Program-made: the position numbers and the translations under genes | Source: Raillietiella orientalis | Lineage: Eukaryota | NCBI GenBank assembly: GCA_036172245.1 | Contig: JAYWIR010000023.1 | Coordinates: forward strand, 868,001 to 932,000 | Length of the DNA stretch: 64,000 nt | Reading direction: 5' to 3' | In this document: positions 1-64,000 of the stretch, piece by piece | Numbering within the stretch: the stretch's first letter is position 1 | Layout: each line of letters begins with the position of its first letter | Notes under the pieces: generated by a model | Told to the model about the DNA's origin: nothing | The model's input: only the letters and a program-made list of their open reading frames with translations | Database searches by the model: none

Positions 1-224
1 CCCCTCTTTCTTTTTTTTTTTTGACTGTTTTGTTTTTGTTTTATTTTTTTCTTTCTGTTTGTCTCCCCTTCCCCTGTGCTGCCGAGGCAAAGCCTGCTGG
101 TCTGCGTGGCAGATCCCGGCAGGTTCCTTTTCGTATTCATAAGTAACGTGGCAGGATCAAACGATCTGCCACAGACGTGTGTGTTTATTTTTTATAAATA
201 AACGCCCGGAATGACCGGGTGTGA
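1..224 (+). mobile_element. 3' end (3' UTR) of an L1/Tx1-clade non-LTR retrotransposon of the same group as the 54.6-64 kb cluster (copy E); continues left of the window
   Basis: Pyrimidine/T-rich tract, CTGCCG(79-84)...CTGCGT(102-107)...CGGCAG(117-122) stem, and terminal AATAAACGCCCGG-AATGA-CCGGGTG (197-221). The same motifs end the four elements at 54.6-62.1 kb. Confidence 0.8.
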
Positions 225-39800: not shown

Positions 39801-42122
39801 TCCTCATAAATTAATGTATGCATGTACTAATTACATGCCTTCCCTTGTGGGAATATACCAAAACCATGCGTATCTTCTTAAGCAATTTGCATACATGAAT
39901 GATTTACATGATGGTAATTTCAATCAACTACTAATTTCAAACAAAGATAAGAACACCTCTATGATTATACAAACATATGTTCAATGTGGGGAGACATAAT
40001 GTGATGACCTGAACATTTTCATACAAAGTATTATGGAGCCAAACTCCCAAATGGAAAATTATGAAATGTATGCAAGAAATATAGCTTATCCAATTAAAAA
40101 ACATTTGTATTGTAAGTGTACAAATTCACAGAAGCAAACTCTCTAAGTAGGCATGAAAAATGATGAAACTCCCATGCAGCGTTAACTTTTTTACCAGGGA
40201 ACGGTACCAAATTTGTAATATTGCAAGCAGTGCAGCAATTACGTACTATGACATGATAAATAATATAAAAACCAAATCAATTACGTTATTCACACTGAGC
40301 ATACAATGTACTTAAACTGTAATCAGCTTATGTTACAAATTTAAATTAAGTAACATTACACCTGATGTGCAATTTTATGATAAGCAATAGAACAGAAAGA
40401 ATTACAATTTTTGGCTATAGGAAACTCATTTGGCCAACTGGCCAACTCATTTAAAACAACAATAAACATTAAACAGTACGATATTTTTTGAAAGTAATGA
40501 AAATAAAAAAAAAATTGAATATCTGGGAGAGATTTCCCATTACATGGTGTTTTTCTTGTATTTATCCACAGCTCGCAAAACAAAACACTGATATCAAGAA
40601 TACTGCCAATCAATGTTTTCTGTTATTTTCTACTCAACTCCGATCCTGTCGCATATTTTAAAGTCTCAATACATAACAAGAGCTGCAACTTGAACTTGGA
40701 CCTGTTCACGGAGAAAAGAATATAATGGAGACAAAACAAAGGCTGCAAATAAGAATCAAAGAACTTGAATGCAAACGCATTAATTATAGTGATAAAAGAA
40801 ACACTATGTAAGGTTCAGACCTGCTCAGCATTAAAAGGAAACAATAGGAAATTCCAAAACGTATTGCTAAATCCATGAAGGGGTAAAACACTTGGATATC
40901 CCAAAACATGGACATAATTTACACATTAATGTCAAGAATCACATTAGATTTTCTAACTAATAGGCCAAAAAGAAAAAGCAGTTCATAACAATAGGTCATG
41001 TACATTACAACAGCTGAAACTCAAGTCTTACGACATAGAGGAATGGTTGGGAAAAAAATACCCTAATACGTTTTGTTGAATGATAAGCCTATATGTTATT
41101 TTCAAAGGAACTGTTTGTGAATGATAAGTAATTCCTGAAGGGAAAAGAGTGATCCATCTTTCAAAACAGATTGCAACGTTACAAAGAACCAACATACATA
41201 AAACTTTCTGCAAACATAGAAATAAAACTTACGAAGAAAAATTCTTAAATGTTATGCACACAACATCTTTTAAAATTTATCATCTTTTGCTGAAAAAATA
41301 ATCTAGGTAAGGAATCAAATCACATGACAGAATCACTATTGATTTGCAGTTTCATATCATGCAATACATATGCTGAACTTGAATTCTAACATACACGCTG
41401 ATACAAAAAGTTACTGACAAACTTGACAGTACAGAAGCACACAAAGTTTTACTCATAAACTTTTACATAAATGTTTACTCAGGTTTCTGGGACTGGGTTC
41501 GGTACTCTAAGCAAATATGGTGAATCGCATGTAAAACTTTCAAGAAATCATTTCCTTTTCAGTAGGCATGCTTATTGGTGTGTTAAGATGACTTCATAAA
41601 TGAGCTATGAGCAAGAGGGCACATATTTTTGTGAAAAGTGCAGATCGATAAAGTGCAGGGCATACGAGGAGCTCATCACGATGCGAGTTTCAGAAATTAA
41701 TTCATTTTTTCTGAACTTCTACGTCCGTACATGCAGGAATTTTGTTTGGATTAATTCCGTTCGATTCTGCTAAATACTCAACAGGGCACCGATAGTTTTC
41801 CGCCCAACGAAAGGGAAGACACCGCACCAACATTTACTTTCGTGAAATTTTAAAATTTTCTACGAAGATGGAATACTCAGTGAGTGGAAAATAGCTGATC
41901 ATAGCATATTACGACGGAAGGCAGGTTAAAAAATCCTACTTTTCACGGTAGGGAGCGAGCATCCATTACCTGGTATTTCCGGGATTCATGTAGCTTATCC
42001 CTTTTATTGCGTGCTTCCAATTTACACTGAGCATACCTCGTCAAAACAGAATTACGTCTCTCCTGTATATCTTCCACAGTCTCCAAAACTTTTACATCAT
42101 TCACAACAACGGACTGATCCAT
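30895..42122 (-). CDS. alpha-Spec: Alpha-spectrin, full length, multi-exon
   Basis: Exon 1 41970-42122 ([23 protein letters not shown]), 2.4-kb intron 1, exon 2 39460-39555. Then spectrin repeats, SH3 ([19 protein letters not shown]...[15 protein letters not shown], ~36000-36210), C-terminal EF-hands (FDKDKSG, VDPNRDG), ending [12 protein letters not shown] at 30895. Collinear with arthropod alpha-spectrin. Confidence 0.98.
34882..34923 (-). other. Candidate 42-nt cassette exon of alpha-spectrin ([14 protein letters not shown])
   Basis: Flanked by tctatag| and |gtcagg, phase 0-0, no stop. Leaves a typical 51-nt upstream intron. The peptide resembles the start of the next exon (EHRTEIDAR). 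Confidence 0.65.
40697..40775 (+). mobile_element. Penelope-like element GIY-YIG endonuclease remnant in spectrin intron 1 (duplicated at ~51986-52064)
   Basis: [11 protein letters not shown](E)[12 protein letters not shown] with one frameshift, resembling the Penelope C..YIGETK..L..RIKEH motif. Confidence 0.45.
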
Positions 42123-45100
42123 TCCGACCGCAGAAGCACCTACTGACACACCTCCGACTCCGACCCAGCCTCGCCCCTATACTTGGGCCTCCACAGAAGA
42201 CCGCCGTTGCGCAACCAAAAATAGTTGCAGAATCGAATTTGAAAAGTAGAGAATATTGTAGAGATGCTACAGCATGTAGTGCAGCAAGTGCATTTGAGCC
42301 AGATTCCTTCCTCCCAAAATCGTAAGGATTTGTTCAATGTCTGTCTATTGCAAGAAAACATTACGTAGTTTTCCAAATGATCGTTTGCTTCCTTAAAGAG
42401 TCACTCGGACATTTCTTCCAAAGTTTTAGTTTCATTGTCCAATTTATGCAATGGACATTGGGTATGGTTCTATTTCTAGTTGGTTTTCCTTTATCATCAT
42501 CAGTCTGCAACACGCTATGACGAATTAACAAGAACAAGGTCTTACAGTCACTGAGAAGTGATCAAAAAAAAAGTTCACTGGAAGTTCCCAAAGAGGATTT
42601 CGCTCCTTTGTGAAATTTCATAATTCATTTCGTTGTTTGGATTCGAAAATTCGACGAATGCTACTAAATGATTTCAGTGAACGTAGGTAGGACCTACTTC
42701 GATATTTCTCTCTTGTGCCGCTGCTAAACTGAAACCCACAAGAAGATGCACAGAGCTGTTAAGACAAGTGTACGAATTGTGACAGCACTGTATCGTGATG
42801 TAAGTTGTCTGTAGTGAAGTACCAATATTTTCACATCGAGAAACTGTCAGCTTCTTTGGTGAGCTAATGGACTCTTGAACGCAGAATTTCATTCAAAGAA
42901 CTCACAAGCAGACTTCCGAGTACGAAGAATTAATAGCACACGTGACCTTTGATCTGAACGAAGATTGCTTGCTTTCACAAAGAGACAGATTTTCCAAAAT
43001 GTTTCTGAGACGACATCTAATGACGTTCGTGATGCATTGAAGCTGTTTGTATCGTTATCACTTCAGCTGTCATGCAGTGCTTTGCAAGTGATGACGATAT
43101 TAGGAAGGCAAGGAAAAATTGGGAATGACCCCGGAACACAACTACGGCTGCAAATAATATTTTCGCCAACATTGACACTTGGAAGCAAGCTAAGATTAGC
43201 ATCGTTGATTAGTATTTTATACTATTTTATTTATTTAAATTGCCGACAAATTTTATACTTTTAATGGAAAACTTGTTGTCAGAATCATTAATTTGAATTT
43301 CTACTTTTCTTGCTGTTTATCCATTTACAAGGTCCAGTGATTGTGTTGCTGTAAATCGACCGTAGTAGTTCAATTCCTTGAAGTTGAATCTCGTTTATTT
43401 GCATAACATTACAGATAACATAACATTGCAGATATTTTTTGAATATTAGTTGTGTGTATTGTAGCTTTACCACGGTTTCCCAATTCTTTTCTTTTTCAAT
43501 TTTTAAAAAATCCAACAAATGTCTAAGGCCAACTAACGCCTGCAGGTGTGAATTTTCACACAACTTTTTGTAAAAATTCTTCATGCTGCGAAAAATTTTC
43601 GAATCTACACAGATATAGAACAAATGTGTGAAACCTTCGGTTTATACAACAATTGATGAAATTTAATTGGTTTATTTTTATTTGCTCATTTATATGGCAA
43701 ATGTGAAAGTCAACTGCACAAATTGATGCCTTCTAGGAATGCTCTTTAATTAGTTCTTGAATCGCTCAGAACAGATACTGCGACTGCAGCAAAAAATCAT
43801 TTGAGAATCTTCGAATGTCTTGAGGCTTTTGTGGTTACATATAGTTTGTTCGTTGTGCAGTTAGGTTTCCCATTAAATGATGAACGAACAGAATACATTG
43901 CACGCTTATTTTTAATAATTGTGAAAACATCACACCAGCATCTAAAGAAGCTTACTAATTTGTAGCAAGGACACGCAAGTCTACACACTTGGACTTTCGC
44001 CATACTAATAGCATTTCACGAACCTATGATTTAGACCAATTATTCAAATTCTAATTACTAATTTAAAGTTGATTTGTATCACTAGGTGGGAAAAGAAGCG
44101 GTAACGAATCAGAATCACAAAGATGAGAAAATATTCACAAAAATACGGGAAAATGGGTGCGTGAAGGGTTGTCGAGAATGTTTGTCATGATGGCCTTAAT
44201 ATGCGCAAATCGCTGTTCACAAAGCGGAAAGCATTCTAAACAACATCCAAATTCTAGCAAAATTCTGATACTTGGAGCTAACCGCAAAAGGAAATAGAAA
44301 AGTTATTTGATCAATCGGAAGATGCAAGAAATGAAGAACCTTATAAATGCTATATAGAGCACACGAGATTTGTGCCCACTGGTCAATATGTGAATATTCG
44401 ATGGCGAGAAAAGATGGAGAACAGCAGTTTAAACGGTTTGATGTCCATTTTCTTTATTGTAAGTGTGCATCTCCGACGGAGATAGCATTTCACAAACGTA
44501 TGATTTAAGACAATATCCTGCTGCACAAATTTTCATTTAAAAAACTTTTACTCGATCCCCTTTTTATTGGCAAATTTTCGCATTGTCAATACAGTCGAGT
44601 ACTTGCTTCATCCTTACATAAACATTGCGTCTTGGTAAGAAATCTTCCAAACAGTGTGACCTAGGAAGAAAGAAAAAAAAAACCAACTCTTGCAATTAAC
44701 TTCGAATTCGAATTCTCATAGTTGAAGTGCATTTTTCGATACAAACCACACATGCAGAATCAAATTTGAACAAGATGTATTCATTATATATTCTCTTAGC
44801 TATTCATAAACATATTAGTCATGTGGTTTTGGGTTTTCATGTCACATACTTATGTCACATCACAAGCAAACATGAACCAGTAGATCGTAACCTTCACTCT
44901 GGAGTTCAGTTGTGTTGGCAGTACTTTCGCAGACTCGGAACTGTGTGTTTCTTCGAAATTCCCCATGTAATAGTCCATGAGGGAAGTTACGGGATATCCT
45001 GATGCTAATACTTACACAACATAAACAGGGTGCAATTGAGTCCTGAGAATATTCGACGCTAATTTGAACAGAGTTCAAAGGTAATGGGTTTACTTGAGTG

Positions 45101-48208: not shown

Positions 48209-51200
48209 TCACCTGCTTTCTGATATATCTATTCCAGAGATAGGTCCCCCTGATAAGATAAAAATATTCACAATTTACACAGAGATCACATTAATTGAGA
48301 ATTACCTACGTTCATGGCACCTGGCTGGGGGTATGGCTGAGGTGGAGGTGGTACAGGTTCAGAAGGAGGTACTGGTGATGGCTGACTTCCAGGTACAGGG
48401 ATATTTTGACCTGCATTAGCAGGGTTTGTTGAGGCAGCCTGGCAAATACATCATGTTCCAAGTGATTAAAGGAAGCAGCTTCAAAAAAAATTCTTTTTTG
48501 CATACTTTTTCAGCTTTCATTTGCCGTTCTAAAATTGCAGCTTCCTTGTGCATGCCCATGGAACGATAATATTCTAACCACTGAGCACTATAATCAGGGT
48601 GACCTGTAGTTGGTGTCGCTGCCACAGGTACAGGGGCAGCAGAACGTGGCACAGGCTCATCATAATAATAGGAATAGGAATTAGCAAATACTAGAAGGCA
48701 CACAGATGGCACTTCATCTGTGCAAGGCCGATTTGCAAGCAGTTCCTGCTCAAAATTCTGATGCTTTTGGAGTTTTCCATTCAAATTAGTGGGATCCTAC
48801 ATCAGCTATATTAAGTGTAAAATTTAATTCTCAAGCTTACCATGTAATTTTCATCTGTCACTACTTTAAGCTTCTCATTGATCCATCCCTTAGTTTCATC
48901 ACAATCTCTCTCAAACTGCTGCAAGCGATAAGACTCATCTAACATAAAACGTCGATTAGTTGATTTGTCTAAAAGTGCTAAGCGTCGCTCTAGAAGCTAA
49001 AAAAGAGTTGCTTTTTCTGAAATATACATCCAATGATCCTGACCAACTGCCTGCGATGAGCCACATCATCAAGTGCATAACGCTGCTCATTAATAAGCTT
49101 GGCAGGTAAAATCTCCAAAACTTTGATCTTTTCTTCTTGTGCAGCTAAAGATTTCTCAAAATCCTCGTGCTTTTTTATAAGGGCTTCCACAGAATCTAAA
49201 GAATCGCCAAGATCGTCACTGATCAGGAACGCTTCTTGCTTGGCGATAATTGCATCAGCTTGTTCAGTATCGCGATAAAATAATTGCGGATCCAAACGCT
49301 GTTCATTAAGAATTCCTCTATCTTCGCACAGTTTCAATAAGGAGTTCTTCGCGGATCTTAAGGTGTCAAGCTTTTCTTTCACATCCTCAGAAGCAAAATG
49401 TCCTGCATCAAGCAACTTTTGGCCAGATGCCATTGTATTCTGAAAATCATCGCTATGGGCATCGATTTCTCCTTTGTGTTCCTGATGACATTCTAACAGA
49501 GCTTCACCTCCTGAAACTTCTTTGGCTAACTCATCAGCCTGTATAATCGTTTTCATGTCTGCAATCCAAGACATCAGATCACGATAATCAACCAAAAAAC
49601 AGTGCAGCAAGTAGGACTCATCTAAGCGCCTTTTTCGATCCTGAAGTCGATAATTAATTGGTACACAATCTTAATCGACAAATTGTACCTGAGCTTTTCC
49701 CTTTAGATTTTGCCAGTTGTTTACTATAACTTTATGTTTTGTTTTGATTTGATCACTGTTCTCAGGATTTCCAGAAAACAGTGAGTCAGCGTCTTCACCC
49801 AACTTGCACACTTTGTACTCCAGAGCTGCTAAATCTCTCTCCATTCCCTCATGTTTTCTCTGTAACAAATTGGTACATGACAGGAACTACTTTTCATCTT
49901 TTGTTATAGACCTGTAACGCTTGCACACTAGCAAGGTCTTTGCCTAAGTCATCTGAAGACAAAACTGAATCTTTCTCCAAAATCGAGGCAAATGCCTCAT
50001 CAGCCTCTCGATTGAGTCTTCGAATTTCAACGCCCCGAAATAAACGATCCTGTCTATGAATAGCCACCTGTCCCAAATGCTCCCAAGCTTCCAACATTTC
50101 CTGCAATTACTATAATCTTGTCATGCTACCCACAACAACTGACCTCCTTTCTTTTGATTATCTGGTCTTTTTCAGGATGATGTTCTTCAATTAATCGCTT
50201 TGCAAATTCATATACTTCCAAAACCCGATATTCCTGAGACGCCATATCTCCATGAAGTTCCTTACACTTTCTTTCCAAAACGTCGAAATCCTCAAGACCA
50301 TTAGCAAATTCATCTCCACTGACGAAAGTTACCTACATATTACACATTTGTGATTTATTGACCACTGATTCATTTGTACACTAATAACTTGATTACCTTA
50401 TCACTTATCCAGAACATGACTTCATCACACTGTCTCAAGAATTGCACTAACACTAATGCCTGTTGCAATTTCATACCTTTTTCTGCTAGACGAGAAAGAA
50501 GCAGTTCCCATAAATCATGCAATTCTTCTATAAAAGAGTAAGTATATCATAATCTCCTCAATACCTATAAACAACTTGCCTAATCTTTTTTTGATAGCAG
50601 CGGATTCAAAATGATTCTGATTAATCATTTCAGAACCAGCATTATCTAGTACCACAATTGCATTGCTGTGAGCTGATACTTCAGCCCCAAATGCTTGATG
50701 TTTCAGAATTTCGGCCTGAAATGGGCTTGTAGATAAATTTGTGACACAGCAGTGAATAACCTGTAAATTGGATGCATCCTTGTAGCTTTCATCAGATGCA
50801 GTTTGCAATTTTTCATAGATCCACGACTGCGGTTCATCACAATCTCGTTTGAAGTACTAAATATTTGCAAAGTAAGGGTCAGTTACACATAACAAAATAC
50901 TCATCACTTTTAAAACAAAAACAGTTTAATTTGTATATATTCGTTTGGAGGAAGAGAATCTCCGGCTTTTTTTAACACGACATTTTTCGATGGTTATTAC
51001 GAAGCTCACAACAAGTTATATTAAAAAATACGCAGTTGACCAATAAAAGCTATAACAAATAAGAAAAACTATGCACTTGTGTTTTCAATGATAAATCCGT
51101 TTCCTCATAAATTAATGTATGCATGTACTAATTACATGCCTTCCCTTGTGGGAATATACCAAAACCATGCGTATCTTCTTAAGCAATTTGCATACATGAA

Positions 51201-53412
51201 TGATTTACATGATGGTAATTTCAATCAACTACTAATTTCAAACAAAGATAAGAACACCTCTATGATTATACAAACATATGTTCAATGTGGGGAGACATAA
51301 TGTGATGACCTGAACATTTTCATACAAAGTATTATGGAGCCAAACTCCCAAATGGAAAATTATGAAATGTATGCAAGAAATATAGCTTATCCAATTAAAA
51401 AACATTTGTATTGTAAGTGTACAAATTCACAGAAGCAAACTCTCTAAGTAGGCATGAAAAATGATGAAACTCCCATGCAGCGTTAACTTTTTTACCAGGG
51501 AACGGTACCAAATTTGTAATATTGCAAGCAGTGCAGCAATTACGTACTATGACATGATAAATAATATAAAAACGAAATCAATTACGTTATTCACACTGAG
51601 CACTTCAATGTACTTAAACTGTAATCAACCTTAGTACAAATTTAAATTAAGTAACATTACACCTGATGTGCAATTTTATGATAGCAATGAAACAGAAAGA
51701 ATTGCATTTTTGGCATGTGAAACTCATTTGACCAACTCATTTAAAACAACAATAAACATTAAACAGTACAAATATTTTTGAAAGTAATGAAAATAAAAAA
51801 AAATTGAATATCTGGGAGAGATTTCCCATTACATGGTGTTTTTCTTGTATTTATCCACAGCTCGCAAAACAAAACACTGATATCAAGAATACTGCCAATC
51901 AATGTTTTCTGTTATTTTCTACTCAACTCCGATCCTGTCGCATATTTTAAAGTCTCAATACATAACAAGAGCTGCAACTTGAACTTGGACCTGTTCACGG
52001 AGAAAAGAATATAATGGAGACAAAACAAAGGCTGCAAATAAGAATCAAAGAACTTGAATGCAAACGCATTAATTATAGTGATAAAAGAAACACTATGTAA
52101 GGTTCAGACCTGCTCAGCATTAAAAGGAAACAATAGGAAATTCCAAAACGTATTGCTAAATCCATGAAGGGGTAAAACACTTGGATATCCCAAAACATGG
52201 ACATAATTTACACATTAATGTCAAGAATCACATTGAATTTTCTAACTAATAGAGCCCAAAAAGAAAAAGCAGTTCATAACAATAGGTCATGTACATTACA
52301 ACAGCTGAAACTCAAGTCTTACGACATAGAGGAATGGTTGGAAAAAAAATACCCTAATACATTTTGTTGAATGATAAGCCTATATGTTTTTTTCAAGGAA
52401 CTTTATTTGGCCATAATGGAGACTTCCTTAAAAACTGATGTGATCCATCTTTCAAAACAGATTGCAACATTACAAAGAACCAACATACATAAAACTTTCT
52501 GCAAACATAGAAATAAAACTTACGAAGAAAAATTCTTAAATGTTATGCACACAACATCTTTTAAAATTTATCATCTTTTGCACCTGAAGCTTCTTGAAAT
52601 AATCTAGGTAAGGAATCAAATCACATGACAGAATCACTATTGATTTGCAGTTTCATATCATGCAATACATATGCTGAACTTGAATTCTAACATACACGCT
52701 GATACAAAAATTACTGACAACTTGACTACAGAAGCACACAAAGTTTTACTCATAAACTTTTACATAAATGTTTACTCATGATTTCTGGGACTGGGTTCAG
52801 TACTCTAAGCAAATATGGTGAATCGCATGTAAAACTTTTGAAATCATTTCCTTTTCAGTAGGCATGCTTATTGGTGTGTTAAGATGACTTCATAAATGAG
52901 CTATGAGCAAGAGAATACATATTTTTGTGAAAAGTGCAGATCGATAAAGTGCAGGGCATACGAGGATCATCACGATGCGAGTTTCAGAAATTATTCATTT
53001 TTTCTGAACTTCTACGTCCGTACATGCAGGATTGTTTGGATTAATTCCGTTCGATTCTGCTAAATACTCAACAGGGCACCGATAGTTTTCCGCCCAACGA
53101 AAGGGAAGACACCGCACCAACATTTACTTTCGTGAAATTTTAAAATTTTCTACGAAGATGGAATACTCAGTGAGTGGAAAATAGCTGATCATAGCATATT
53201 ACGACGGAAGGCAGGTTAAAAAATCCTACTTTTCACGGTAGGGAGCGAGCATCCATTACCTGGTATTTCCGGGATTCATGTAGCTTATCCCTTTTATTGC
53301 GTGCTTCCAATTTACACTGAGCATACCTCGTCAAAACAGAATTACGTCTCTCCTGTATATCTTCCACAGTCTCCAAAACTTTTACATCATTCACAACAAC
53401 GGACTGATCCAT
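48209..53412 (-). CDS. Chimeric gene: N-terminal ~635 aa of alpha-spectrin fused in frame to a FUBP/PSI-like C-terminus (DUF1897-type Tyr-rich motif + Pro-rich tail)
   Basis: Spectrin-derived exons from 53260-53412 down to the fused exon 48506-48796 keep their splice sites and frame. The fused exon reads ...NRPCTDEVPSVCLLVFANSYSYYY...GHPDYSAQWLEYYRSMGMHKEAAILERQMKAEK. Next come exon ~48310-48438 (AASTNPANAGQ...PPPPQPYPQPGAMN) and a last exon starting 48249 (stop at 48229 or 48209 depending on donor). Expression is not shown by sequence. Confidence 0.75.
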
Positions 53413-54634
53413 TCCGACCGCAGAAGCACCTACTGACACACCTCCGACTCCGACCCAGCCTCGCCCCTATACTTGGGCCTCCACAGAAGACCGCCGTTGC
53501 GCAACCAAAAATAGTTGCAGAATCGAATTTGAAAAGTAGAATATTGTAGAATGCTACAGCATGTAGTGCAGCAGTATTTAGGCCAGATTCCCTCCTCTAA
53601 AAATCATTAAGGATTTGTTCAATGTCTGTCTATTGCAAGAAAACGTGCCATCATTCCAAATGATCGTTTGCTTCCTTAAAAGAGTCACTCGGACATTTCT
53701 TCCAAAGTTTAGTTTCGTGTCCGAATTTATGCAATGGACATTGGGTATGGTTCTATTTCTAGTTGGTTTCCTTTATCATCATCAGTCTGCAACACGCTGT
53801 GACGAATTAACAAGAACAAAGTTGCTTACAGTCACTGAGAAGTGATCAAAAAAAAAAAAAAAGTTCACTGGAAGTTCCCAAGAGGATTTCGCTCGCTTTG
53901 TGAAATTTCATAATTCATTTCGTTGTTTGGATTCGAAAATTCGACGAATGCTACTAAATGATTTCAGTGAACGTAGGTAGGACCTACTTCGATATTTCTC
54001 TCTTGTGCCGCTGCTAAACTGAAACCCACAAGAAGATGCACAGAGCTGTTAAGACAAGTGTACGAATTGTGACAGCACTGTATCGTGATGTAAGTTGTCT
54101 GTAGTGAAGTACCAATATTTTCACATCGAGAAACTGTCAGCTTCTTTGGTGAGCTAATGGACTCTTGAACGCAGAATTTCATTCAAAGAACTCACAAGCA
54201 GACTTCCGAGTACGAAGAATTAATAGCACACGTGACCTTTGATCTGAACGAAGATTGCTTGCTTTCACAAAGAGACAGATTTTCCAAAATGTTTCTGAGA
54301 CGACATCTAATGACGTTCGTGATGCATTGAAGCTGTTTGTATCGTTATCACTTCAGCTGTCATGCAGTGCTTTGCAAGTGATGACGATATTAGGAAGGCA
54401 AGGAAAAATTGGGAATGACCCCGGAACACAACTACGGCTGCAAATAATATTTTCGCCAACATTGACACTTGGAAGCAAGCTAAGATTAGCATCGTTGATT
54501 AGTATTTTATGCTATTTTATTTATTTAAATTGCCGACAAATTTTATACTTTTAATGGAAAACTTGTTGTCAGAATCATTAATTTGAATTTCTACTTTTCT
54601 TGCTGTTTATCCATTTACCAGGTCCAGTGATTGT
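48702..54634. repeat. Segmental tandem duplication of ~37400-43344 (offset ~11.3 kb); resumes at 63982 after the retrotransposon nest
   Basis: Base-by-base match of exons, introns and upstream DNA. Several track ORFs are identical or nearly so (39778/51079, 41943/53233, 42674/53964). Confidence 0.97.
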
Positions 54635-55359
54635 TGCCACCCGGTCACGCCGAGGCGTTTATTAGAAATTCTCTACATTATGGTACGAGGCCCCACTACG
54701 GCCAACACAACAGGACCTGCCGGGCTGCCGGTACGCAGACCGGCGCTACTCCCCTCGGCAGCGGAAGGGGATGGGGAGAAAAACAAAAAGAAAAATAAAA
54801 TATAAAAACTAAAAGATTTGGGAGGGCGGGGAAGGGATCACGGTCCACTGCGAGGAGGGTCTATCCTTTCCAGGATGCCCTCGAGGTCCGTCCGTATAAT
54901 TCCCATGTGGGGCCATCTGGTCACAATCCGCAGGTGGCGGATTGCAAGTTCGACGGCATCGCTGTCGTGGCTAGGTCTTCTGACGTCGCTCCAACACGTC
55001 ACAATCCCTCGGACGCAGCAGGGCTGCGGCAGGCCGAAGGGCGTCACGCACAAAGAGGCGCGTCAGAACGTCTCTAGGGTTGATCGTGGGTGCTCCTAGG
55101 GCCGTTGCGAAACGCAACCACAGGGGTCGGAGGGCAGCACAATCTACAAGGAGGTGGGAGGAGGGTTTCCCGCTCCCCGCACCTGACGCAGGCGGGATTC
55201 ACTCGACCCCTGGTCCAGTGGTGACGGCGTGCGTTGCAAGGTAGGCCCCAATGCAACAACAGAAGCCCCGACTCCTGCCACTTCAGGGGGAGGATCCTCG
55301 AGCCTATGAATACCGGGGGCCACTTCAGGTCATCCGTAGGGATGCCAAGCAGCTCGCCC

Positions 55360-56760
55360 AATCCCAGCCTACTGTTTAAGGTAGGCCGGGTATTCGATGA
55401 TCGTGTGGCGCGCTCCTTTGAGCAGGAGCTGCACCGTTTGAACGTCAATAAGGAGGATCTGTTGGGTCTCTCCATCCGCAGCGGGGGGCAGCATTTCGAG
55501 CTGACCTGCAAAGAAGCAGGGTTGGCGCAAAGACTGCTGCGAACCCCCGTTAGGATCGAAGGCCGCCAGATCTTCCCTGTCCCGGTGGACAACTCAATAG
55601 TTGTTCACCTCCGCGGAATCACCCTACGGATGTCCCCGAGTGCCGTCAGGGCTGAATTGAGCAAATTCGGCACCGTGCACGCACTGTGGGCGAAGCCCAA
55701 CAGACTCCGTACTTATGACGGACTTCTAAGCGGGCATGCTGCTGCGCGCATCACGGTTGCCAAGGACGTGGGGATTCCCCACAAACTGGTTGTCGACGGA
55801 GATACTGTCGACATCTGGTATCTGGGTAAACCCAAATACTGCGCGTTCTGTGATGCTACGGGACACGTGAAGAAACGTTGCCCCAACATCACCTGCCGCA
55901 AGTGCGAGGCAACCGGGCACACGGAAGAAATGTGCCCGAAAAAGACTCCGCGCGCGCTGGCTGCTGCCACGAGTGGCACGAACGCGAATAAAAAGAAGCC
56001 TGGCAAGCCCTGGCCAACGTCCGAAAAACAGGTTGACCCGGAGCCAGCCGAAAAGGCCGTGCCGAACACCCCGTCTGCGGAAACGCAGGCAACCGGGGCG
56101 GAAGGAGAAGAGCCGGACTGGCAAAAGGTCAGCTACAAAAAAGGGAACTTAAAAAAGAAGAATAAAGTCCCTGCAAAACCCGCGAAACCAGCGAAAAAGC
56201 AGGGACTGAAAAAACGCACGATCGCACTGGAGCGCCTTACAGACGCCGAAGTGACATGCGAACAGGCCGTTGCCGTGTGCAACAACGCCGACAGCCCCGT
56301 CGCTGTGCGAACAGCAGCCGAGGGCTGCGGCGAGGGGGAAAGCCGCGTTGGCGCGGACTTTGCGAAAGCCGCCGTCGAGCTCGCCGCCGCCGTTCCGCAA
56401 TCACCCGCAAAGGGCGAGAAGAAGGCGGCTCGACATCCAGCCGAAAGGAGGGGGACCGGGACCTCGGACTCGGACCCGGAGGCCGGACACGCACCATCCG
56501 TGTCTGCAACCCCATGGAAGACCGGACGGAAAATCCGTAACCTGAGGAGGATCGTTTCCTCCGAGGAGGGGGAATCTTCCGAAAACGAGGGTGCGGCGAG
56601 CGTGGGAGGAATGGACACGAGTCCTGAACTCCCACGCCCGGTCGAGACACAGCCGATGCAAGCGGAGGGCGTCGTCGAGGCGCCCCCCACTGCAGACGAG
56701 CAAGAAAGCATCCCGCCCGATGGGGAGGCGGGAGACGCTGCATCACGTTCCCAGCAGTAA
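55360..56760 (+). CDS. Element B ORF1, gag-like nucleic-acid-binding protein, 5'-truncated
   Basis: RRM-like segment (VHLRGITLRMSPSAVRAELSKFGTV), two CX2CX4HX4C knuckles (CAFCDATGHVKKRC, CRKCEATGHTEEMC), basic/low-complexity tail. Confidence 0.88.
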   Translation, partial: NPSLLFKVGRVFDDRVARSFEQELHRLNVNKEDLLGLSIRSGGQHFELTCKEAGLAQRLLRTPVRIEGRQIFPVPVDNSIVVHLRGITLRMSPSAVRAELSKFGTVHALWAKPNRLRTYDGLLSGHAAARITVAKDVGIPHKLVVDGDTVDIWYLGKPKYCAFCDATGHVKKRCPNITCRKCEATGHTEEMCPKKTPRALAAATSGTNANKKKPGKPWPTSEKQVDPEPAEKAVPNTPSAETQATGAEGEEPDWQKVSYKKGNLKKKNKVPAKPAKPAKKQGLKKRTIALERLTDAEVTCEQAVAVCNNADSPVAVRTAAEGCGEGESRVGADFAKAAVELAAAVPQSPAKGEKKAARHPAERRGTGTSDSDPEAGHAPSVSATPWKTGRKIRNLRRIVSSEEGESSENEGAASVGGMDTSPELPRPVETQPMQAEGVVEAPPTADEQESIPPDGEAGDAASRSQQ

Positions 56761-59700
56761 TGCCGGGACTCGCCACCTGCCGTCAAATCCGCATCGCCAG
56801 TTGGAACGTCAACGGGCTTTGCGATGACGGCAGGAGACGAGACATAGCTGCCACCTTACAAGCCTTCGACCTTGTGCTGCTGCAGGAGATCCACGAGATC
56901 TCCGCAGAACATGCGCGGGAGATCGAGAGGATAGCAGGTGGTCAGCTAATGTGGCGATGCGGCCACTGCCGTACGCGCGGGGTCGCTTTCCTTCTGAAGC
57001 CTGCCTTACAACGTTCGGTGAGGAAAGTTCGTTTCAATGAGACAGGTCGGGTCGGGCAAATCACCTTCAGGTGGTCCGGCTCGATCGATCTCGTCGTCAC
57101 GAACGTGTACGCGCCGAGCGGCGGTCACGCGCGCGTGGCACGGACGGCATGCTTCCGTGCGTTCCAGCGCGACTGGCTGTCGGAGGCAGGCGCGCGCACG
57201 GCGCACCTGATAGCCGGCGATTTTAATATTCGCCTGCTATCAGGTGCGGCGAGGACAGAGGCCACCCCGGTTAACGAGATGTGCGCCACGGTGCACGCAT
57301 CCAACTTGTTGGCCGGGGACGCCGAGATGGAGCGGAGCGTGGACCACGTCTTCCTCGACGATCACCTGCGCTGTCGCGTGGGCAGGAGAGGTAAGATACA
57401 GTCCGCTGTCTCCGATCATTCCCTTGTGGAATTCGTCATTCGCCCGTGCGACAGGGGGCCCCCCTCGCAGGCGTGGCGTTTACCGGGGGACTGGCTGACG
57501 AAGCCAGGCGCAGGGGAACACCTCCTCGCGTTCTTGCGAGGTTTCAGCCTGCAGACGCTCGACGACTGGGACGATTTGAAAGTCTCGGTGCGAGAGTTCT
57601 GCCAACAGTTCCCCATGGACCGTCTCCCGAAAGGATTTGGAGAAGGTGTTCGGAACGATAGGGCTTACCTGCAGGCCCGTCGTTACACCCGAACACCCGA
57701 CGTCCGAAGACTGGCGGAATTTAAAGCTGGGGCCGAGAGGCAGGCCTGGCAATCCGGGTCGCCCAACCTGCTGGACGACGAAGGCCAGGAGCACTCGGCC
57801 CCGGCAGAGGTTTGTCACCCGGATATGCCGGGGCATTTATTATTCTAATTTGTTACAAAAATTAGATAATAAAGTCTTTAAAAAATGTTTTCTGTGGGGA
57901 ACACTGGGTTCTTCCACGCTACAATGTACTCGCTACCCGGTCTTTAGACCGGCGAGGTTCTCTCCCCAGGCGCTGGGGAAGGGGAAAAGGAAAACAAAAA
58001 ACAAAAAAGGAAATAACGGGGAGGGAAAGAGTTCTATGGGGAGGTGGGGGGTAGGGAAGGGATCACTGGGCGCCTGGCTCGGTCCTCCGCATCCTGTTTA
58101 GGATGCAGTCAAGTTCTGCTTTCACTGTGAAAGGTAGACGCCACCTTGTCGCCGTCTCCAAAGAGATCGTCGTCCAGTGGATGGCGTCCCTGCATCTTGG
58201 GCCTCTTCTTCTTGCGTGCCACCTTTGCACAATGCCGCGCACGCAGCAGAGGACTGCTAGAGACGCAGCGGGGCGCAGGCCGTCACGCAGAAAGAGGCGA
58301 CGGTAAATGTCCTTAGGGTCGCCTACTGGAAGATGGAGGATTGGGGCGATTCGACTCCAGAGTCCATCCAGGGCGACACACTCGAGGGTAAGATGCGGGA
58401 AGGTGAGCAGTGAGGCAGAGGTGAGCAGCCTAGTGCGCGGTTATTATTCCTCCCTGTACACCAGGGTGCCTCCGGACCGGGATTTTTCCCGGCTTTTGCT
58501 TCCGGATGGCGCCCCGGCGATCGGGGAGGAAGAGAGAGCACGCCTGGATGAGCCTTTCACGATGGGTGAAATCATCACCGCAATCGGGAAGCTCAAAAGG
58601 CGGAAGTCACCGGGGGAGGACGGCCTGCCCGCGGAGTTTTTTCAATGCTTCGCGGCGGAGCTTGTCCCCCTGGTGCAGCGGTTAACGCTGCTGATCCGGG
58701 AGGCAGGCGACGTTCCCGCCTCCTTCCGATCGGCACGGATGCGTCTTCTCCTGAAGGGAGGAGACTTACGGAACCTCAGCAATTGGCGTCCGATCACCGT
58801 TTCAAACGCGGACGCCAAGCTGCTTGCGAAGCTATGGTTGGAACGAATGGGGCGGATGGCGGAAAGCTTCATCAGCCCGGAACAGACATACGCTGTTCCC
58901 GGGCGAAGCATGGACGCCAACCTGCTCTTCGCGAACACCTGGTTCGAGTTCCAGCGATGTAGAGTAGATGAAAAGAATAAGGTCGGCACCCCGAGTTGCG
59001 GGACGTCCGCTGGTGGTTCGCGAGATGGTCGGGAGCGCGAGGGGGCCCTCGCGGTCGCAGTCGATCTGCGAAAAGCATTTGACTGCGTCGACCAAGAGCT
59101 CCTGCTGGAGCTAATGGAACGCCTGGGCTTCCCGGCCTCCTTATTAGCCTTTCTGCGCTCTTGCTGGCGCGACGCGCTGACCAATATTTCTTTCAGAGGA
59201 AGAAACGTGTTCGGTGTGCCGGTGCGCCGCGGGATACGGCAAGGTGACAGCTTGAGCCCCTTGCTTTTCAGCACCTACTTCGAGCTGGTGCTGAGGGCAT
59301 ACAGGGAGACTCTTGGTCGCCTGCCGCGCGTGTGCCCAGGTACACCGGCCGTGGCGTCTTATGCGGACGATCTTTTGCTGCTGCTCCCCATGTCCACCCC
59401 GGCGTCGGCGGTCGAAAACTTTTTCGAGCTGCTGCGTCGCGGGACAGGGCTGGAGGGGAACAGAGCGAAGTCGTCCGTGGTTGCAGCTGGTTCATCGCGG
59501 GCAGGGCAGCCGGATTGGTCTAGCTTGGGGATCCCCACGGTACCGTACTTTAAGTACCTTGGTGTGCCGTTGGGAAACTATTCCCCTGCGGAAGCGTGGT
59601 CTAGCTGCCTCCAAAAGGCCGAGAGAGCGATCGGCCCGTTCCTGGATGGCAAGTTTTTCTTGCCGGAACGGGCCGTGATGTGGAACACGTTTGTGGCCCC

Positions 59701-60932
59701 CCTTTTTCGCCCCTTGCTTTTTGTTTGCCCTCCACCCTGCGGTGTCAGAAAACGGACGAAGGACCTCCTCAGAATCGCCCTTTGGGGTAGAGGTAGGCCC
59801 CGAGTCCGTTTGAAGGACTTATGTGCCCCTGGTCGCGATGGAGGCCTCGGCCTCCTCACGCTGGAGCGGCTGGAACTGCAGCTGCAGTTCAGGACTAGGT
59901 CTAGTAGCGAAGCTATGGAGCACCAGCTGGTGCGAGCCTGCACGACGCCTTGTTCAGCGAGCTAGCAGCTGCGCGGGACTGTCTACCTTCCTGGCGCGCC
60001 GCAAACGCCGGTACCTGTTCCACTGCGGACTGGCACTTCGGCGAGTGGCGAAGCTGACCAGAACGAACACCTGGATCTCCTGCCGGCCCGCGAACGGTAC
60101 TTCCTGGTTGCAGGAAAGCCTTCGCACGTGGGCCCAGATCGAGGAAGCGAGCCCGGAGTTGCGGCAGCGAATGCTGCTCTCCTATCACAAGAGCCGCTCG
60201 CTGCAGGACATCATTGTGCAGCCCACCTTGAGCGCATGGGCTGAGAGGACCTCCCTTGCCACGGCTCTGTTCCACCTTAGGGAGCACCTGGGCAGTAGCC
60301 ATCCGGCGAAATGGGAAGTCCGGTGTAGTATCTCTGGAAGAGAGAGAGAGCAAGGTGGTTGGACCACGGGCCAGTTCACAGACGCTGCGACCCCAAGTGC
60401 TCCACCAAAGGGACTATTGCGCTGGGGCGAGCTGCTGAGCAACCCCATGGATGTACTCGAGTGGCCCCCGGTGCTGAAGACTACCCGGGCCCTCCACCTG
60501 AAGTGGCAGGAGTCGGCGTTCCTGGTGTTGCACTGGGGACTCCCCAGCAACGCCCGCCGTTCGCACTGGACGAGGGGGGCTGTGGACCCAAATTGTGTCA
60601 GGTGCGGGGAACGGGAAACCCTCCTGCACCTGCTTCTTGACTGTGTTGCCCTCCGGCCTCTGTGGTTGCGTTTCGCAACGGCCCTAGGAGCACCCACGAT
60701 CAACCCTAGAGACGTTCTGAAGCGCCTCTTTGTGCGTGATGCCCTTCGGCCTGCCGCAGCCCTTGCAGCCCTCTGCTGCCTACGAGGGATTGTAACGGCC
60801 TGGAGCACCGCCACTGGTGGACTGAACGACAGGGACATCTGCTCCGCCCTGCGTTTCCTAAGGACGGAAGCCAGATGGTCCCATTTGGGGCATATGCGGA
60901 CCGAACTTGTCAGCATCCTGGAATGGATGTAG
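56760..60932 (+). pseudogene. Element B ORF2 (APE endonuclease - RT - zinc finger), disrupted by insertion C and one frameshift near 59896
   Basis: APE motifs SWNVNG, LQE, NVYAP, GDFN, VDH, SDH; RT motifs KSPGEDG, NWRPIT, DLRKAFD, GIRQGDSLSP, YADD, KYLGVP; CVRCGERETLLHLLLDC. Removing C plus one TSD restores ...PAEVSSLVRGYY in frame. Confidence 0.92.
57812..58413 (-). mobile_element. Element C: ~600-bp 3' fragment of a related retrotransposon nested in ORF2 of B
   Basis: TSD GGCAGAGGT at 57803-57811 and 58414-58422. Minus strand encodes HLTLECVALDGLW...RRLFLRDGLRPAA... and ends AATAAATGCCCCGG-CATAT-CCGGGTG-ACAA. Confidence 0.9.
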
Positions 60933-61110
60933 AGGACGACTCCAGCGGAATGTGATCCCTTCCCCAACTCCTCCCTGCTTTTGTACATAGTGTTTTCTTT
61001 TTGTTTTTATTTGTCCTTTTCCCCCCCGCTGCCGAGTCGAACTCGCCAGCCTGCGTGCTTGCTACTCGGCAATTTCAAACTCTTTACTAGAACATTTTTT
61101 AGGACGCTGT

Positions 61111-61998
61111 TTATCACCCGGGTGCGCCGGGGCGTTTATTAAAAACTATCCGGGAACAGAGTTCCTGGACAAAGGGGAAGACAAGATACGAAGGAAGTGG
61201 GATCCCCAACACGCAGGTTGGTATGGCGAAAAGATGGAACGGGAGGGAGGGGACCACAAATAGACTACTATAAAAAATAAAAATAAAAATATGGTGGGCA
61301 GGGGACAGGGGTCTTTGGTTCGGCCGTTCCTTCCTTTCATAACCGGCGATGGATGCCGGCGATCTCTCTCCTCACGCTCTCTGGTAGGTGGACCCACTCG
61401 GCAGCCGACGACATGCTTGCGCTGGCTAATCCGGTGGGCTGACGAAGGATGGCCAGCTTCTCCAACTCTCAGTGGGCCTTGTCGATGGCGCGGGTGCAAC
61501 ACGGTTGCAACGACAGCACCCAAAGACAGGCCGCCTGGCGTGAAGAAGCGGCGCATCAAGTCCCTCGCGGTGTCCCCCTGGTGCAGGAGAGCTGATGTAG
61601 TCCCCTCCGCTAAAGTTCTAGAAGGGCACCGCAGTCCAGGAGCAGGTGCGGGAGCGTTTCCACTTCCCCGCACCGCTTACAGTTTGGGGAGACAACTCCC
61701 CCGGAAACACGGTTCGTCCGCTGGTTGGAGTGAAAACCCCAATGCACCAGCATGATGACGTCCTGCTTCCACGAAAGGGGGAACACAGAAGTGTTCAAAC
61801 AGGAGGGAGGGACCACAAGTTCTTCGGGGGCACACTCAAGTGTTCACTCCGCCGAAGGAGTCCCTTCGAGATGTGGCGAGGCGTGGCGGCGTCTGCCAGC
61901 TCGCAAGCCGACAATAGGTCGTGTTGCTCCTGCAATGTTGCAGGCGACCTCCCATCTCTCCAGTTCGCAGCTGTCATCTCTTGCCCTATCTCTCTTGC
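61111..61998 (-). mobile_element. Element D: ~890-bp 3' fragment of a related retrotransposon nested in the 3' UTR of B
   Basis: TSD TTTTAGGACGCTGT at 61097-61110 and 61999-62012. Encodes LVHWGFHSNQR...CKRCGEVETLPHLLLDC and ends AATAAACGCCCCGG-CGCAC-CCGGGTG-ATAA. Confidence 0.9.
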
Positions 61999-64000
61999 TT
62001 TTAGGACGCTGTAGGGGCAATAGCCCTACACTTGCTTGTTTGTTTTTATAAAAAAATAAACGCCCCGGTGCACCCGGGTGTAAAAGCAGCTCGCCCCATC
62101 TCATGAGTCCTCGCGGGAGGACACTTCGGGTCGTGGCGTCAACCAGCTGCCCCGTGGTCCAGCCGCTCATCAGCTTCTCTTTGCCTGCAATACGGCAGGA
62201 GACTTGCCACCGTGGCGTCCGGCTTCTGTGAAGCGCCTTCCTCAGGAAGGACATCGCCGTAGCTAGGGGGGTTGTCTCTGCCCAGGTGCTCCTCGCCGGA
62301 CACTCCAGTATCTTCCGCAGAGTGCAGCGGGAGTAGGCGCCGCGTCGCAGGCAGTTCCACATCTCTTCGTTCCTCTGATTTATCTTCGCCCACGTGCCAG
62401 TGGTCTCCTCCAGCCATGCGGAGGAGTTGGCGGGGCTGCATACCATCCAGCCGTTTTCCTTAGCCAGACTTGCCATGCGTCCCATGAGAAGGCCGCATCT
62501 CTTGATCTTCGAGCCACGGCACTGAAGATGAGTCGCGAGACCTTCCGTCCAGGATACACGGGTGGCAAGGAGGCGGGCCGGAACGCACCATGGGGTGCTC
62601 CATAACTTCGCTGCGATGGCGAGGGTGCGCCATCGCAGCTGAATCTCCACTCGCTCCAGCGTCAAGAGGCCGAGACCGCCATCACGTCGCGGAGCACTCA
62701 AGTCCTTCAACGGGACACGGGGCCTCCCTCTTCCCCAAAATGCAATTCTCAGGAGGTCCTTCGTCCGTTTCTTCAACTCCCGGGGGACGGGGCAAACAAA
62801 AAGCAGGGAGCAGAGGATGGGAGCCGCGAACGCGTTCCCCACCGCGGCCCGTTCCGGAAGGAGAAACTTGTCTTCCAGGAACGGGCCGATCGCCGTCTCA
62901 ACTTTTTGGAGGCAGCCGGACCACGCTTCCGAAGGGGAATAGTCCCCCAATGGCACATCAAGGTACTTGAGGTACCTCGCCGTGGGGATCCCCAAACGAA
63001 CCCAGTCCTGCTGCCCTGCCCACGCCGCACCAACTGGCACCACCAACGACTTCGCCCTGTTCACCTACAGTCCGGTCCCGCGGCTAAGCAGGTCGAAGAA
63101 TTCCCCGACTGCCTTTGCCGAGGTGGAGATAGGCAACAAGAGCAGAAGATCGTCGGCATAAGCTGCTACGGCGGGCGTGCCGGGGCACGAGCTCGGCAAG
63201 GGGGCCAACGTCACCCTGTACGCTCTCAGCACCAACTCAAAGTAGGTCCTAAAGAGCAGGGGATTCATTCTATCGCTCTGCTGTATGCCCCGCCGTACCG
63301 GCACGCCGTACGCCATTTGACTTCTGAAAGAGATATTAATTAGCGCGCTGCACCAGCAACAGCGCAGGAAGGTCAGTAGGGAGGGAGGGAAGCCCATGCG
63401 ATCCAGGAGCTCCAGCAGGAGATCCTGGTCCACGCAGTCGAACGCTTTATGCAGATCGACTGCGATCGCTAGGGCCCCCTTCCCCGCCTGGGTGTCCCGT
63501 CCCTGCCCGGCTGACGCCCCCAAAGTGGGGCTGCCAATCATTCCCTCTTCCTTATTTTCACTTCTCTGCACATGAAACCATGTGCTCGCGAAGAAGAGGT
63601 TGGCCTCCATACTTCGCCCGGGAGCAGCGTAAGTCTGCTCCGGGTTAATTATGGAATTGGTCACCTGCCCCAACCGCGACGCCCACAGTCCGGCGATCAG
63701 CTTGGAGTCCGTATTCACAATTGTGATCGGACGCCAGTTGCTGAGTTTTCTGAGGTCTCCTCCTTTCGGAAGGAACCTCACTCTGGCTGACCAAAACGAG
63801 GCGGGAACATCGCCTTCGTCTCGAATAAGCCTGGTCAACTGAAGCACCGGGGGGGCCAGCTCTTCCGCGAAGCACTGAAAGGACTCCGCAGGCAGGCCGT
63901 CTTCCCCTGGCGCCTTGCGCCTCTTGAGCATTTTAATCCCGGCGAGAATTTCGCCGGTCGTAAAGGGCTCGTCGAGGCTTTAGGTCCAGTGATTGTGTTG

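Follow-up and report, generated by a model that had tools for sequence, protein, structure and literature searches.

A three-deep nest of four L1/Tx1-like LINE copies in Raillietiella orientalis, each guest antisense to its host

The window analysed here is a stretch of 64,000 nucleotides from Raillietiella orientalis. It carries a nest of four LINE copies towards its far end (Table 1), in gene-dense surroundings that include urocanase, a GOST 7TM gene and alpha-spectrin exons. Copy A lies on the minus strand and contains copy B on the plus strand, which in turn contains copies C and D, both on the minus strand; orientations were taken from the strand of the 3' motif and from tblastn. An earlier note on this DNA had described such a four-copy, three-deep nest with exact target-site duplications (TSDs) of 15, 13, 9 and 14 bp for A, B, C and D, respectively. 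The coordinates and strands were confirmed, and a direct-repeat check returned the same duplications, with no mismatch across the 51 bp of TSD pairs. The same note had counted a single further copy in the other ~54 kb. Motif scanning and tblastn agreed, recovering outside the nest only one further member of the family, copy E, of which just the 3' end falls inside the window. One other LINE remnant is present in the 54 kb (29787-29948). A proposal that E adjoins a tRNA-derived SINE was dropped, its sole support being a B-box-like string; neither a tRNA search nor Rfam gave a match anywhere in the window.

Table 1. Positions of the nested copies, their duplications and the fifth copy, numbered from the first letter of the window.
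Feature	Position	Strand	Description
A TSD	54620-54634 and 63982-63996	.	15 bp AGGTCCAGTGATTGT, exact repeat
A, entire	54635-63981	-	contains B
A 3' part	54635-55359	-	ORF2 C-terminus with putative zinc-finger region, 3' UTR; 3' module 54638-54663
A 5' part	62097-63981	-	begins within RT domain (5'-truncated); in-frame stop ~63062-63064
B TSD	55347-55359 and 62084-62096	.	13 bp, exact repeat; left copy is A sequence
B	55360-62083	+	contains C and D; 5211 bp without these guests; 3' module 62055-62080
C TSD	57803-57811 and 58414-58422	.	9 bp, exact repeat
C	57812-58413	-	602 bp, 5'-truncated; ORF2 end and 3' UTR; 3' module 57816-57841
D TSD	61097-61110 and 61999-62012	.	14 bp, exact repeat
D	61111-61998	-	888 bp, 5'-truncated, stops and frameshifts; 3' module 61115-61140
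E (3' end only, cut by window start)	1-224	+	3' module 197-221; downstream flank 58.5% GC

The coding structure is clearest in B. Its ORF1 is open to 56760 and encodes an RNA-binding-like region and two CX2CX4HX4C strings, putative zinc knuckles. Its ORF2 starts with the ATG at 56760 and encodes an APE endonuclease, a reverse transcriptase (RT) and a putative C-terminal zinc finger, a frameshift separating the RT frame from the C-terminal frame. B had been taken for a full-length element, a claim that did not survive because ORF1 has no start codon near the 5' end; all four nest copies, A, B, C and D, are 5'-truncated. The guests entered their hosts at different places: B in the C-terminal coding part of A ORF2, C between the endonuclease and the RT of B, and D in the B 3' UTR, 71 nt before the end of B. 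When C and one copy of its TSD (611 bp) were excised in silico, the endonuclease frame of B ran into its RT frame. Likewise, excision of B with one TSD copy (6737 bp) kept the reading frame of A. We regard the anatomy of the nest, the truncations and the independence of the four events as established.

Two artefactual or non-standard origins were considered and rejected. Misassembly was set aside on three grounds: every guest is bracketed by an exact duplication of its own, the lineages differ by at least 25% and the frames are restored. For the first two of these reasons, twin priming or template switching was rejected as a source of the inverted layout.

Profile searches matched B to Exo_endo_phos (2.9e-14) and RVT_1 (1.1e-19), and A to RVT_1 (5.5e-14). 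The APE endonuclease lies upstream of the RT in one ORF, the B frames joining once C is discounted. Further LINE traits are present, namely TSDs of variable length, 5' truncation and a lack of terminal repeats. The zinc-finger matches fell below threshold: zf-CCHC in ORF1 scored 20.5 bits, just under the 20.8 cut-off, accompanied by a weak AIR2-knuckle match, and zf-RVT after the RT scored 20.7 bits against a cut-off of 27.5, at a CX2CX7HX4C string found in A, B and D. Among solved structures, human L1 ORF2p was the best match to the RT (1.9e-37), R2 matching much less well (1e-14), and L1 EN was the best match to the endonuclease. The best named database match was a Danio rerio 'pol-like protein' of 26% identity with APE, RT and zf-RVT domains. 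Among 5.8 billion protein clusters, a single relative exceeded 33% identity (P0001, 79%).

The copies differ considerably from one another. The RTs of A and B are 68.5% identical at the amino-acid level, and the 3' part of A is 74% nucleotide identical to its counterpart in B. By tblastn, C shares 46.7% amino-acid identity with the B C-terminus and D shares 39% with B; pairwise tblastx over the 3' coding region common to the copies put C and D at 37-53% identity with A or B. All have a GC content of about 60% in an arthropod genome of roughly 40% GC. The earlier description of four lineages with differing zinc fingers holds in part: the strings were found in the translations of A, B and D, and C is truncated inside the motif, retaining its second half only. 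Judged by their sequences, the four elements represent as many diverged lineages within a single L1/Tx1-like LINE group.

An AATAAA and a possible 5-bp hairpin are common to all five copies in the window. The order of this 3' module is a poly(A) signal, the possible hairpin with its 5-bp stem, and GTG plus 3-4 nt, with no poly(A) tail. Across the five copies every stem pair is complementary (25/25 cells); four of the five pairs are invariant and the fifth changes at just one of its two positions, so that the alignment provides no covariation support for the hairpin. The module is probably what the RT recognises.

The 3' motif was also sought beyond the window. Scanning of metagenome contigs returned six loci, none with protein similarity to B, and scanning of genome contigs returned ten, all in bacterial MAGs or isolates; none of the 16 loci combined showed protein or nucleotide similarity to the nest. 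The single sequencing run recovered, X1, is distantly related; it contained 6% of the sampled words and represents a relative or a thin sample. At a likeness of at least 85% to positions 52000-64000 it yielded 305 short contigs, of which 11 matched at 99% or above, 32 at 95-99%, 95 at 90-95% and 167 below 90%; the depth of these contigs is not equivalent to copy number. One X1 contig joins 55363 to 62174, skipping about the length of B, with only 24 letters on one side, and six others stop 46 letters past 57766, at about the B/C boundary. These two observations fit copies without guests, and each is too weak to use.

The history of the insertion site could be read from a neighbouring paralogue. 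A third copy of the A 15-mer, at 43330-43344, forms an uninterrupted, empty paralogous site for A. It falls within a 5.9-kb duplicate (37407-43344 versus 48710-54634) with 96.2% identity over 5971 columns, and the nest is accordingly younger than a segmental duplication of 3.8% divergence; insertion after that duplication is equally firm. The CpG observed/expected ratio is 0.93 in the nest and 0.71 in the background. From the identity of the TSDs, the empty paralogous site and the CpG level, the nest is a young compound insertion.

We then consider the choice of target. The nest does not show Tx1-type target specificity, since the three nested sites occupy non-homologous host positions and share no motif beyond pyrimidine|A. 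Three of the five copies in the window are nested; A sits in host DNA and E adjoins GC-rich DNA, these two being the only family insertions in the 54-kb background. Under uniform insertion, three nested family hits have a nominal window-level P of 7.6e-4, a value that ignores the choice of window and selection against insertions in the surrounding genes. On the basis of this nominal P, it is plausible that insertion genuinely favours family or GC-rich DNA. Target-site GC is 0.30 for A, 0.625 for B, 0.645 for C and 0.485 for D, with 0.585 for the E flank; in the background the mean is 0.396, and a GC of 0.50 is reached by only 6.5% of 200-bp bins. Three of the five family 3' ends abut DNA of 58% GC or more, the D site standing at 48.5%. 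The GC-rich flank of E gave no match to family or LINE proteins.

With regard to orientation, each of the three guests runs antisense to the copy it entered. The earlier note put the probability of this at 1/8; for a uniform orientation pattern the fair value is the two-sided 1/4 (P = 0.125 one-sided, 0.25 two-sided). As a crude nick motif, GT with a purine after it was counted in the sense and antisense strands of each copy, giving 115 versus 120 in B, 70 versus 46 in A, 17 versus 12 in C and 21 versus 20 in D. The motif is therefore symmetric in B, which received two of the three guests, and offers no basis there for an orientation bias. Chance is the best reading of the 'always antisense' pattern.

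On balance we favour, with some reserve, an ordinary nested LINE pile-up, whereby four separate events stacked where insertions were tolerated, the three guests being antisense by chance. Four rounds of target-primed reverse transcription would have placed A into host DNA, B into A, and then C and D into B, each copy being dead because it was 5'-truncated on arrival. The endonuclease is apparently of little sequence specificity, with a first nick at pyrimidine|A and duplications of 9-15 bp. Stacking most likely marks where insertions survive: because the nest lies in gene-dense DNA, a dead LINE would offer the closest place where an insertion does no harm. Some mild attraction to GC-rich or repeat chromatin may contribute, and homing on kin would be unnecessary. 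Zepp-like active targeting of kin, independent of any fixed site, would instead have the machinery drawn to the DNA or chromatin of relatives (for example by a mark, a transcript or a protein tether) in any orientation. We hold this to be unlikely. The nominal P value argues for it, as does the pairing of a nest younger than a recent duplication with a 54-kb background that received two family insertions only; Zepp and Zepp-like L1 elements are, moreover, reported to nest by targeting existing copies (PMC3446292, PMC8226300). Insertion was evidently not restricted to kin, however, as A landed in 30% GC host DNA and E beside GC-rich DNA that matches neither the family nor LINE proteins. Furthermore, because nucleotide similarity between host and guest is low, and amino-acid identity 37-53% in places, little would be left for sequence-based recognition of relatives, and the case consists of one nest in one window that was picked for looking odd. 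One nest cannot show that a family seeks its own relatives. A general preference for GC-rich or repeat-type chromatin, under which GC-rich islands in an AT-rich genome attract elements regardless of kinship, appears distinctly improbable: it fits the GC of the B, C and D sites and of the E flank, all above background, but not that of the A site, and within the window's five sites GC-richness is confounded with family membership.

The remaining alternatives give orientation or mobility a larger role. Specific targeting of relatives in antisense, as a safe haven, as sabotage of rivals or as a self-made dsRNA/piRNA source, would account for the three antisense events out of three and for the lack, by sequence, of a guest AATAAA on the host sense strand. 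We consider it highly improbable, given that the orientation P is unremarkable and the nick motif in B symmetric. The 'sabotage of competitors' proposed in the earlier note fits poorly, because the hosts, already dead 5'-truncated copies, left nothing to sabotage. In a one-strand piRNA cluster the elements should share a single orientation, and here the order is -, +, -, -; additionally, the bias in the most thoroughly studied example, human L1-in-L1 insertions, is towards sense (21,559 versus 9,899) and is ascribed in that study to sequence features (PMC2836564). It is just as hard to credit that the composite was mobilised as a whole, C and D having entered a B-lineage element elsewhere and a read-through B+C+D RNA having been copied into A by proteins acting in trans, which would leave one local nesting event. 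A single duplication pair does bracket the whole composite, antisense guests place no poly(A) signal on the B sense strand and B retains its own 3' module, but the route requires trans-complementation of a 6.7-kb RNA, and the sequences analysed showed the C and D junctions only once each. The most far-reaching proposal, an arthropod LINE group that homes on kin without a fixed site and with an antisense bias, is very unlikely in our estimation; host transcripts would then go unterminated, composites would be transcribable and perhaps mobilisable, and the sense/antisense RNA pairs would feed small-RNA silencing.

On the favoured reading of an ordinary pile-up, the locus offers a textbook-clean case of nested LINEs with an internal empty-site control, and it brings to light a GC-rich, sparsely sampled LINE group from an arthropod whose genome is AT-rich. 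The 3' module persists across lineages that share no more than 37-53% protein identity and can serve as a handle for gathering junctions genome-wide. Site-independent homing of LINEs on their relatives is documented mainly for algal Zepp. Were kin-targeting with an antisense bias true, the nest would be an animal counterpart of Zepp nesting with an orientation rule in addition, and such a rule, if true, would bear on how transposon nests turn into small-RNA sources.

Comparison with known systems places the nest elements nearest the APE-type LINEs of the L1/Tx1 group, with which they share two ORFs, an ORF2 with APE endonuclease and RT, variable duplications and 5' truncation; putative zinc knuckles in ORF1 and a candidate C-terminal Cys/His motif in ORF2 would add to the likeness. 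Unlike these, they lack a poly(A) tail and end in the possible hairpin and 3-4 nt. Members of the Tx1 clade are described as inserting at fixed sites in snRNA genes, microsatellites and DNA transposons, and in that account Tx1, Keno, Kibi and Koshi each use the same position in one repeated target (PMC4494074), whereas the nest elements use non-homologous sites. In green algae, Zepp and Zepp-like L1 elements are described as GC-rich relative to the host genome and as forming nested, 5'-truncated copies (PMC3446292, PMC8226300). The nest elements resemble them in both respects, being GC-rich against their genome and lying inside one another as 5'-truncated copies. By these descriptions, however, Zepp forms one large cluster per chromosome, in contrast to one small nest in gene-dense DNA, and tandem arrays of 3' ends whose orientation, on our reading of the description, is shared, whereas orientation alternates here. 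A, moreover, is not nested and lies in AT-rich host DNA, and E lies beside GC-rich DNA without a family protein match. In Drosophila, same-family nested insertions of non-LTR elements have been reported, including opposite-orientation cases with both junctions visible (McGurk and Barbash 2018, PMC5932611), and orientation biases among human nested LINEs have been explained by strand-asymmetric target motifs (Levy et al. 2010, PMC2836564). As described, both studies draw on genome- or population-wide counts, whereas the present case is a single locus.

Four LINE copies occupy the final 9.4 kb of the window, where the GC content is 59.5% against 39.6% in the remainder; A contains B, and B in turn contains C and D. 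The earlier note had described such a nest with exact target-site duplications, and this observation was confirmed in full by the exact repeats flanking each copy together with reading-frame bookkeeping. When C is discounted along with one copy of its repeat (611 bp), the endonuclease frame of B joins its reverse transcriptase (RT) frame; likewise, discounting B with one repeat copy (6737 bp) keeps the frame of A. Thus, B and C are true interruptions of their hosts. In translation, the A protein carries on past the B insertion, running parallel to the sequence of B itself at that point.

Window coordinates of the nested LINE copies and of the 3' modules of all five family copies
Feature	Position	Strand	Details
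A	54635-63981	-	15 bp exact direct repeat; 2610 bp net of guests
B	55360-62083	+	13 bp exact direct repeat; 5211 bp net of guests
C	57812-58413	-	9 bp exact direct repeat; 602 bp
D	61111-61998	-	14 bp exact direct repeat; 888 bp
3' module	197-221	+	E; end-motif scan
3' module	62055-62080	+	B; end-motif scan
3' module	54638-54663	-	A; end-motif scan
3' module	57816-57841	-	C; end-motif scan
3' module	61115-61140	-	D; end-motif scan

A third occurrence of the 15-mer flanking A lies at 43330-43344, within a segment of 5.9 kb (37407-43344) sharing 96.2% identity with 48710-54634, and the sequence there runs uninterrupted through the site of A. This is an empty paralogous site which fixes the ends of A and gives this neat example of nesting its own empty-site control. 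It follows that the duplication, with 3.8% divergence between its copies, predates the entire nest. The absence of mismatches in 51 bp of repeat pairs and a CpG observed/expected ratio of 0.93 (0.71 in the background) also point to a young nest.

Together the two segments form a segmental duplication, at least 5.9 kb long and offset by 11.3 kb; the alignment ends at the nest and probably continues past the window. Both of its copies include an alpha-spectrin exon of 226 codons (37687-38367 and 48990-49670); several amino-acid changes mark the second, which may be an alternative exon or a pseudo-exon. On the minus strand, alpha-spectrin exons at about 31.8-38.4 kb share 80-84% identity with insect spectrins and, on sequence grounds, the host is an arthropod. 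Further left are genes for urocanase and a GOST-type 7TM protein.

ORF1 of B encodes two CX2CX4HX4C strings (zf-CCHC 20.5 bits, slightly below the cut-off), while ORF2 encodes an APE-type endonuclease (2.9e-14), an RT (1.1e-19) and a C-terminal CX2CX7HX4C motif scoring under the zf-RVT cut-off. The nearest solved structure to the RT was human L1 ORF2p (1.9e-37), with R2 proteins far weaker (1e-14), and that to the endonuclease was L1 EN. Database relatives were remote: one metagenome protein was 79% identical and the rest at most 33%. Among longer proteins, the best named match was a Danio rerio 'pol-like protein' (26% identity), and many best matches combined APE, RT and zf-RVT domains. On the basis of the structure matches and this domain make-up, it is reasonable to regard the elements as L1/Tx1-like; assignment to the Tx1 clade is a lead. 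The ORF1 stop and ORF2 start of B overlap as TAATG (56758-56762), an arrangement associated in certain insect LINEs with termination-reinitiation. GC makes up about 60% of the LINE group, compared with roughly 40% of the genome, and the group is not CpG-depleted. Since this GC-richness is common to all four diverged lineages, it seems to be a trait of long standing and not evidence that the group arrived very recently.

That the four copies represent distinct lineages was borne out by comparison. A and B are 68.5% identical in RT amino-acid sequence and 74% identical in nucleotides across the final 600 bp; in protein sequence, C and D are 46.7% and 39% identical to the B C-terminus. Pairwise tblastx over the shared 3' coding stretch gave 37-53% when C and D were set against A or B; between C and D themselves, almost nothing beyond the last 30 nt is shared. 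The zinc-finger strings cited in the earlier note were found in A, B and D, but C is cut off inside that motif. An end-motif scan of the 64 kb returned five sites and none else, one of them in a single further copy, E, a 3' end cut by the window start (1-224, plus strand). Despite 37-53% protein identity between lineages, all five copies retain a 3' module comprising AATAAA, a possible 5-bp stem (CYCGG/CCGGG), GTG and 3-4 nt with a final A. The 5-nt loop differs in each copy, and none of the five 3' ends has a poly(A) tract. Predicted folds range from -8 to -14 kcal/mol and pairing is possible in 25 of 25 stem cells; the stem is almost invariant, with no covariation among the five copies. By analogy with LINEs in which a specific 3' end is recognised, the module is probably the recognition element for reverse transcription.

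Directly downstream of E, 225-2825 contains several runs of 200-bp bins of at least 50% GC (background 40%). Its long ORFs matched no Pfam family and no LINE protein. On the minus strand at about 325-340, a B-box-like string, GGTTCGAATCC, hints at a tRNA-derived repeat; ARAGORN and Rfam searches of the window found nothing. Were this region a repeat, the count of repeat-in-repeat insertions would rise to four with E. Elsewhere in the 54-kb background, a single LINE remnant was detected: a short piece of RT sequence, interrupted by stops, from an unrelated LINE that is AT-rich (29787-29948; 37% identical to a reverse transcriptase of Danio, E=2.6e-5). Scans of two sequence collections for the 3' motif gave 16 loci, none related to the family; in one sequencing run, 6% of sampled words matched, and short contigs were mostly 85-95% similar.

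Ordinary stacking, whereby dead LINE copies would pile up where DNA tolerates insertions and orientation would fall by chance, is in our view the most likely account, held with moderate confidence. All four nested copies are 5'-truncated: A, whose sequence begins within the RT, is interrupted by an in-frame stop near 63062; B has no ORF1 start codon close to its 5' end, and a frameshift separates its RT frame from its C-terminal frame; D has stops in all frames. The earlier note proposed antisense targeting of relatives as a safe haven, sabotage of competitors or a dsRNA/piRNA source. All three guests are indeed antisense to their hosts; however, any uniform pattern would have drawn notice, so that the chance is 1/4 and not 1/8. 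A crude first-nick motif (GT then purine, on the primer strand) is equally frequent on the two strands of B (115 vs 120) and somewhat commoner on the sense strand of A (70 vs 46). Furthermore, the hosts were dead on arrival, which removes the sabotage reading. The full antisense model is very improbable.

Zepp-like targeting of kin is less likely than stacking though still credible, and a general GC or chromatin preference is credible too, if somewhat less likely again. With insertion taken as uniform within the window, the nominal probability that three in succession hit family DNA is 0.046 x 0.125 x 0.134 = 7.6e-4, a suggestive value weakened because the window was flagged for its nest, because selection likelier removes insertions from gene-dense surroundings, and because it rests on the window and not on the family's share of the genome. 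Local GC is high at the sites of B (0.625), C (0.645) and D (0.485) and in the E flank (0.585), and just 6.5% of background bins reach 0.50; a general GC pull and kin-targeting are thus indistinguishable in the window. Against the former, the A site has a GC of only 0.30. Composite mobilisation is likewise given very little weight.

Nested LINEs as such are already known, including those of algal Zepp elements (PMC3446292, PMC8226300). Tx1-clade families are described as inserting at fixed sites (PMC4494074), whereas the three nested sites here are non-homologous: B entered the C-terminal coding part of A ORF2, C lies between the B endonuclease and RT, and D lies 71 nt before the B 3' end. Read in element orientation, all four sites have in common only that the repeat starts with A and follows a pyrimidine. 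Self-nesting in opposite orientation is reported in Drosophila (PMC5932611). Human L1-in-L1 nests show a two-fold sense bias, ascribed to sequence features (PMC2836564, Table 3), in contrast to the three antisense guests of this nest; orientation effects are therefore already known and can have mundane causes.
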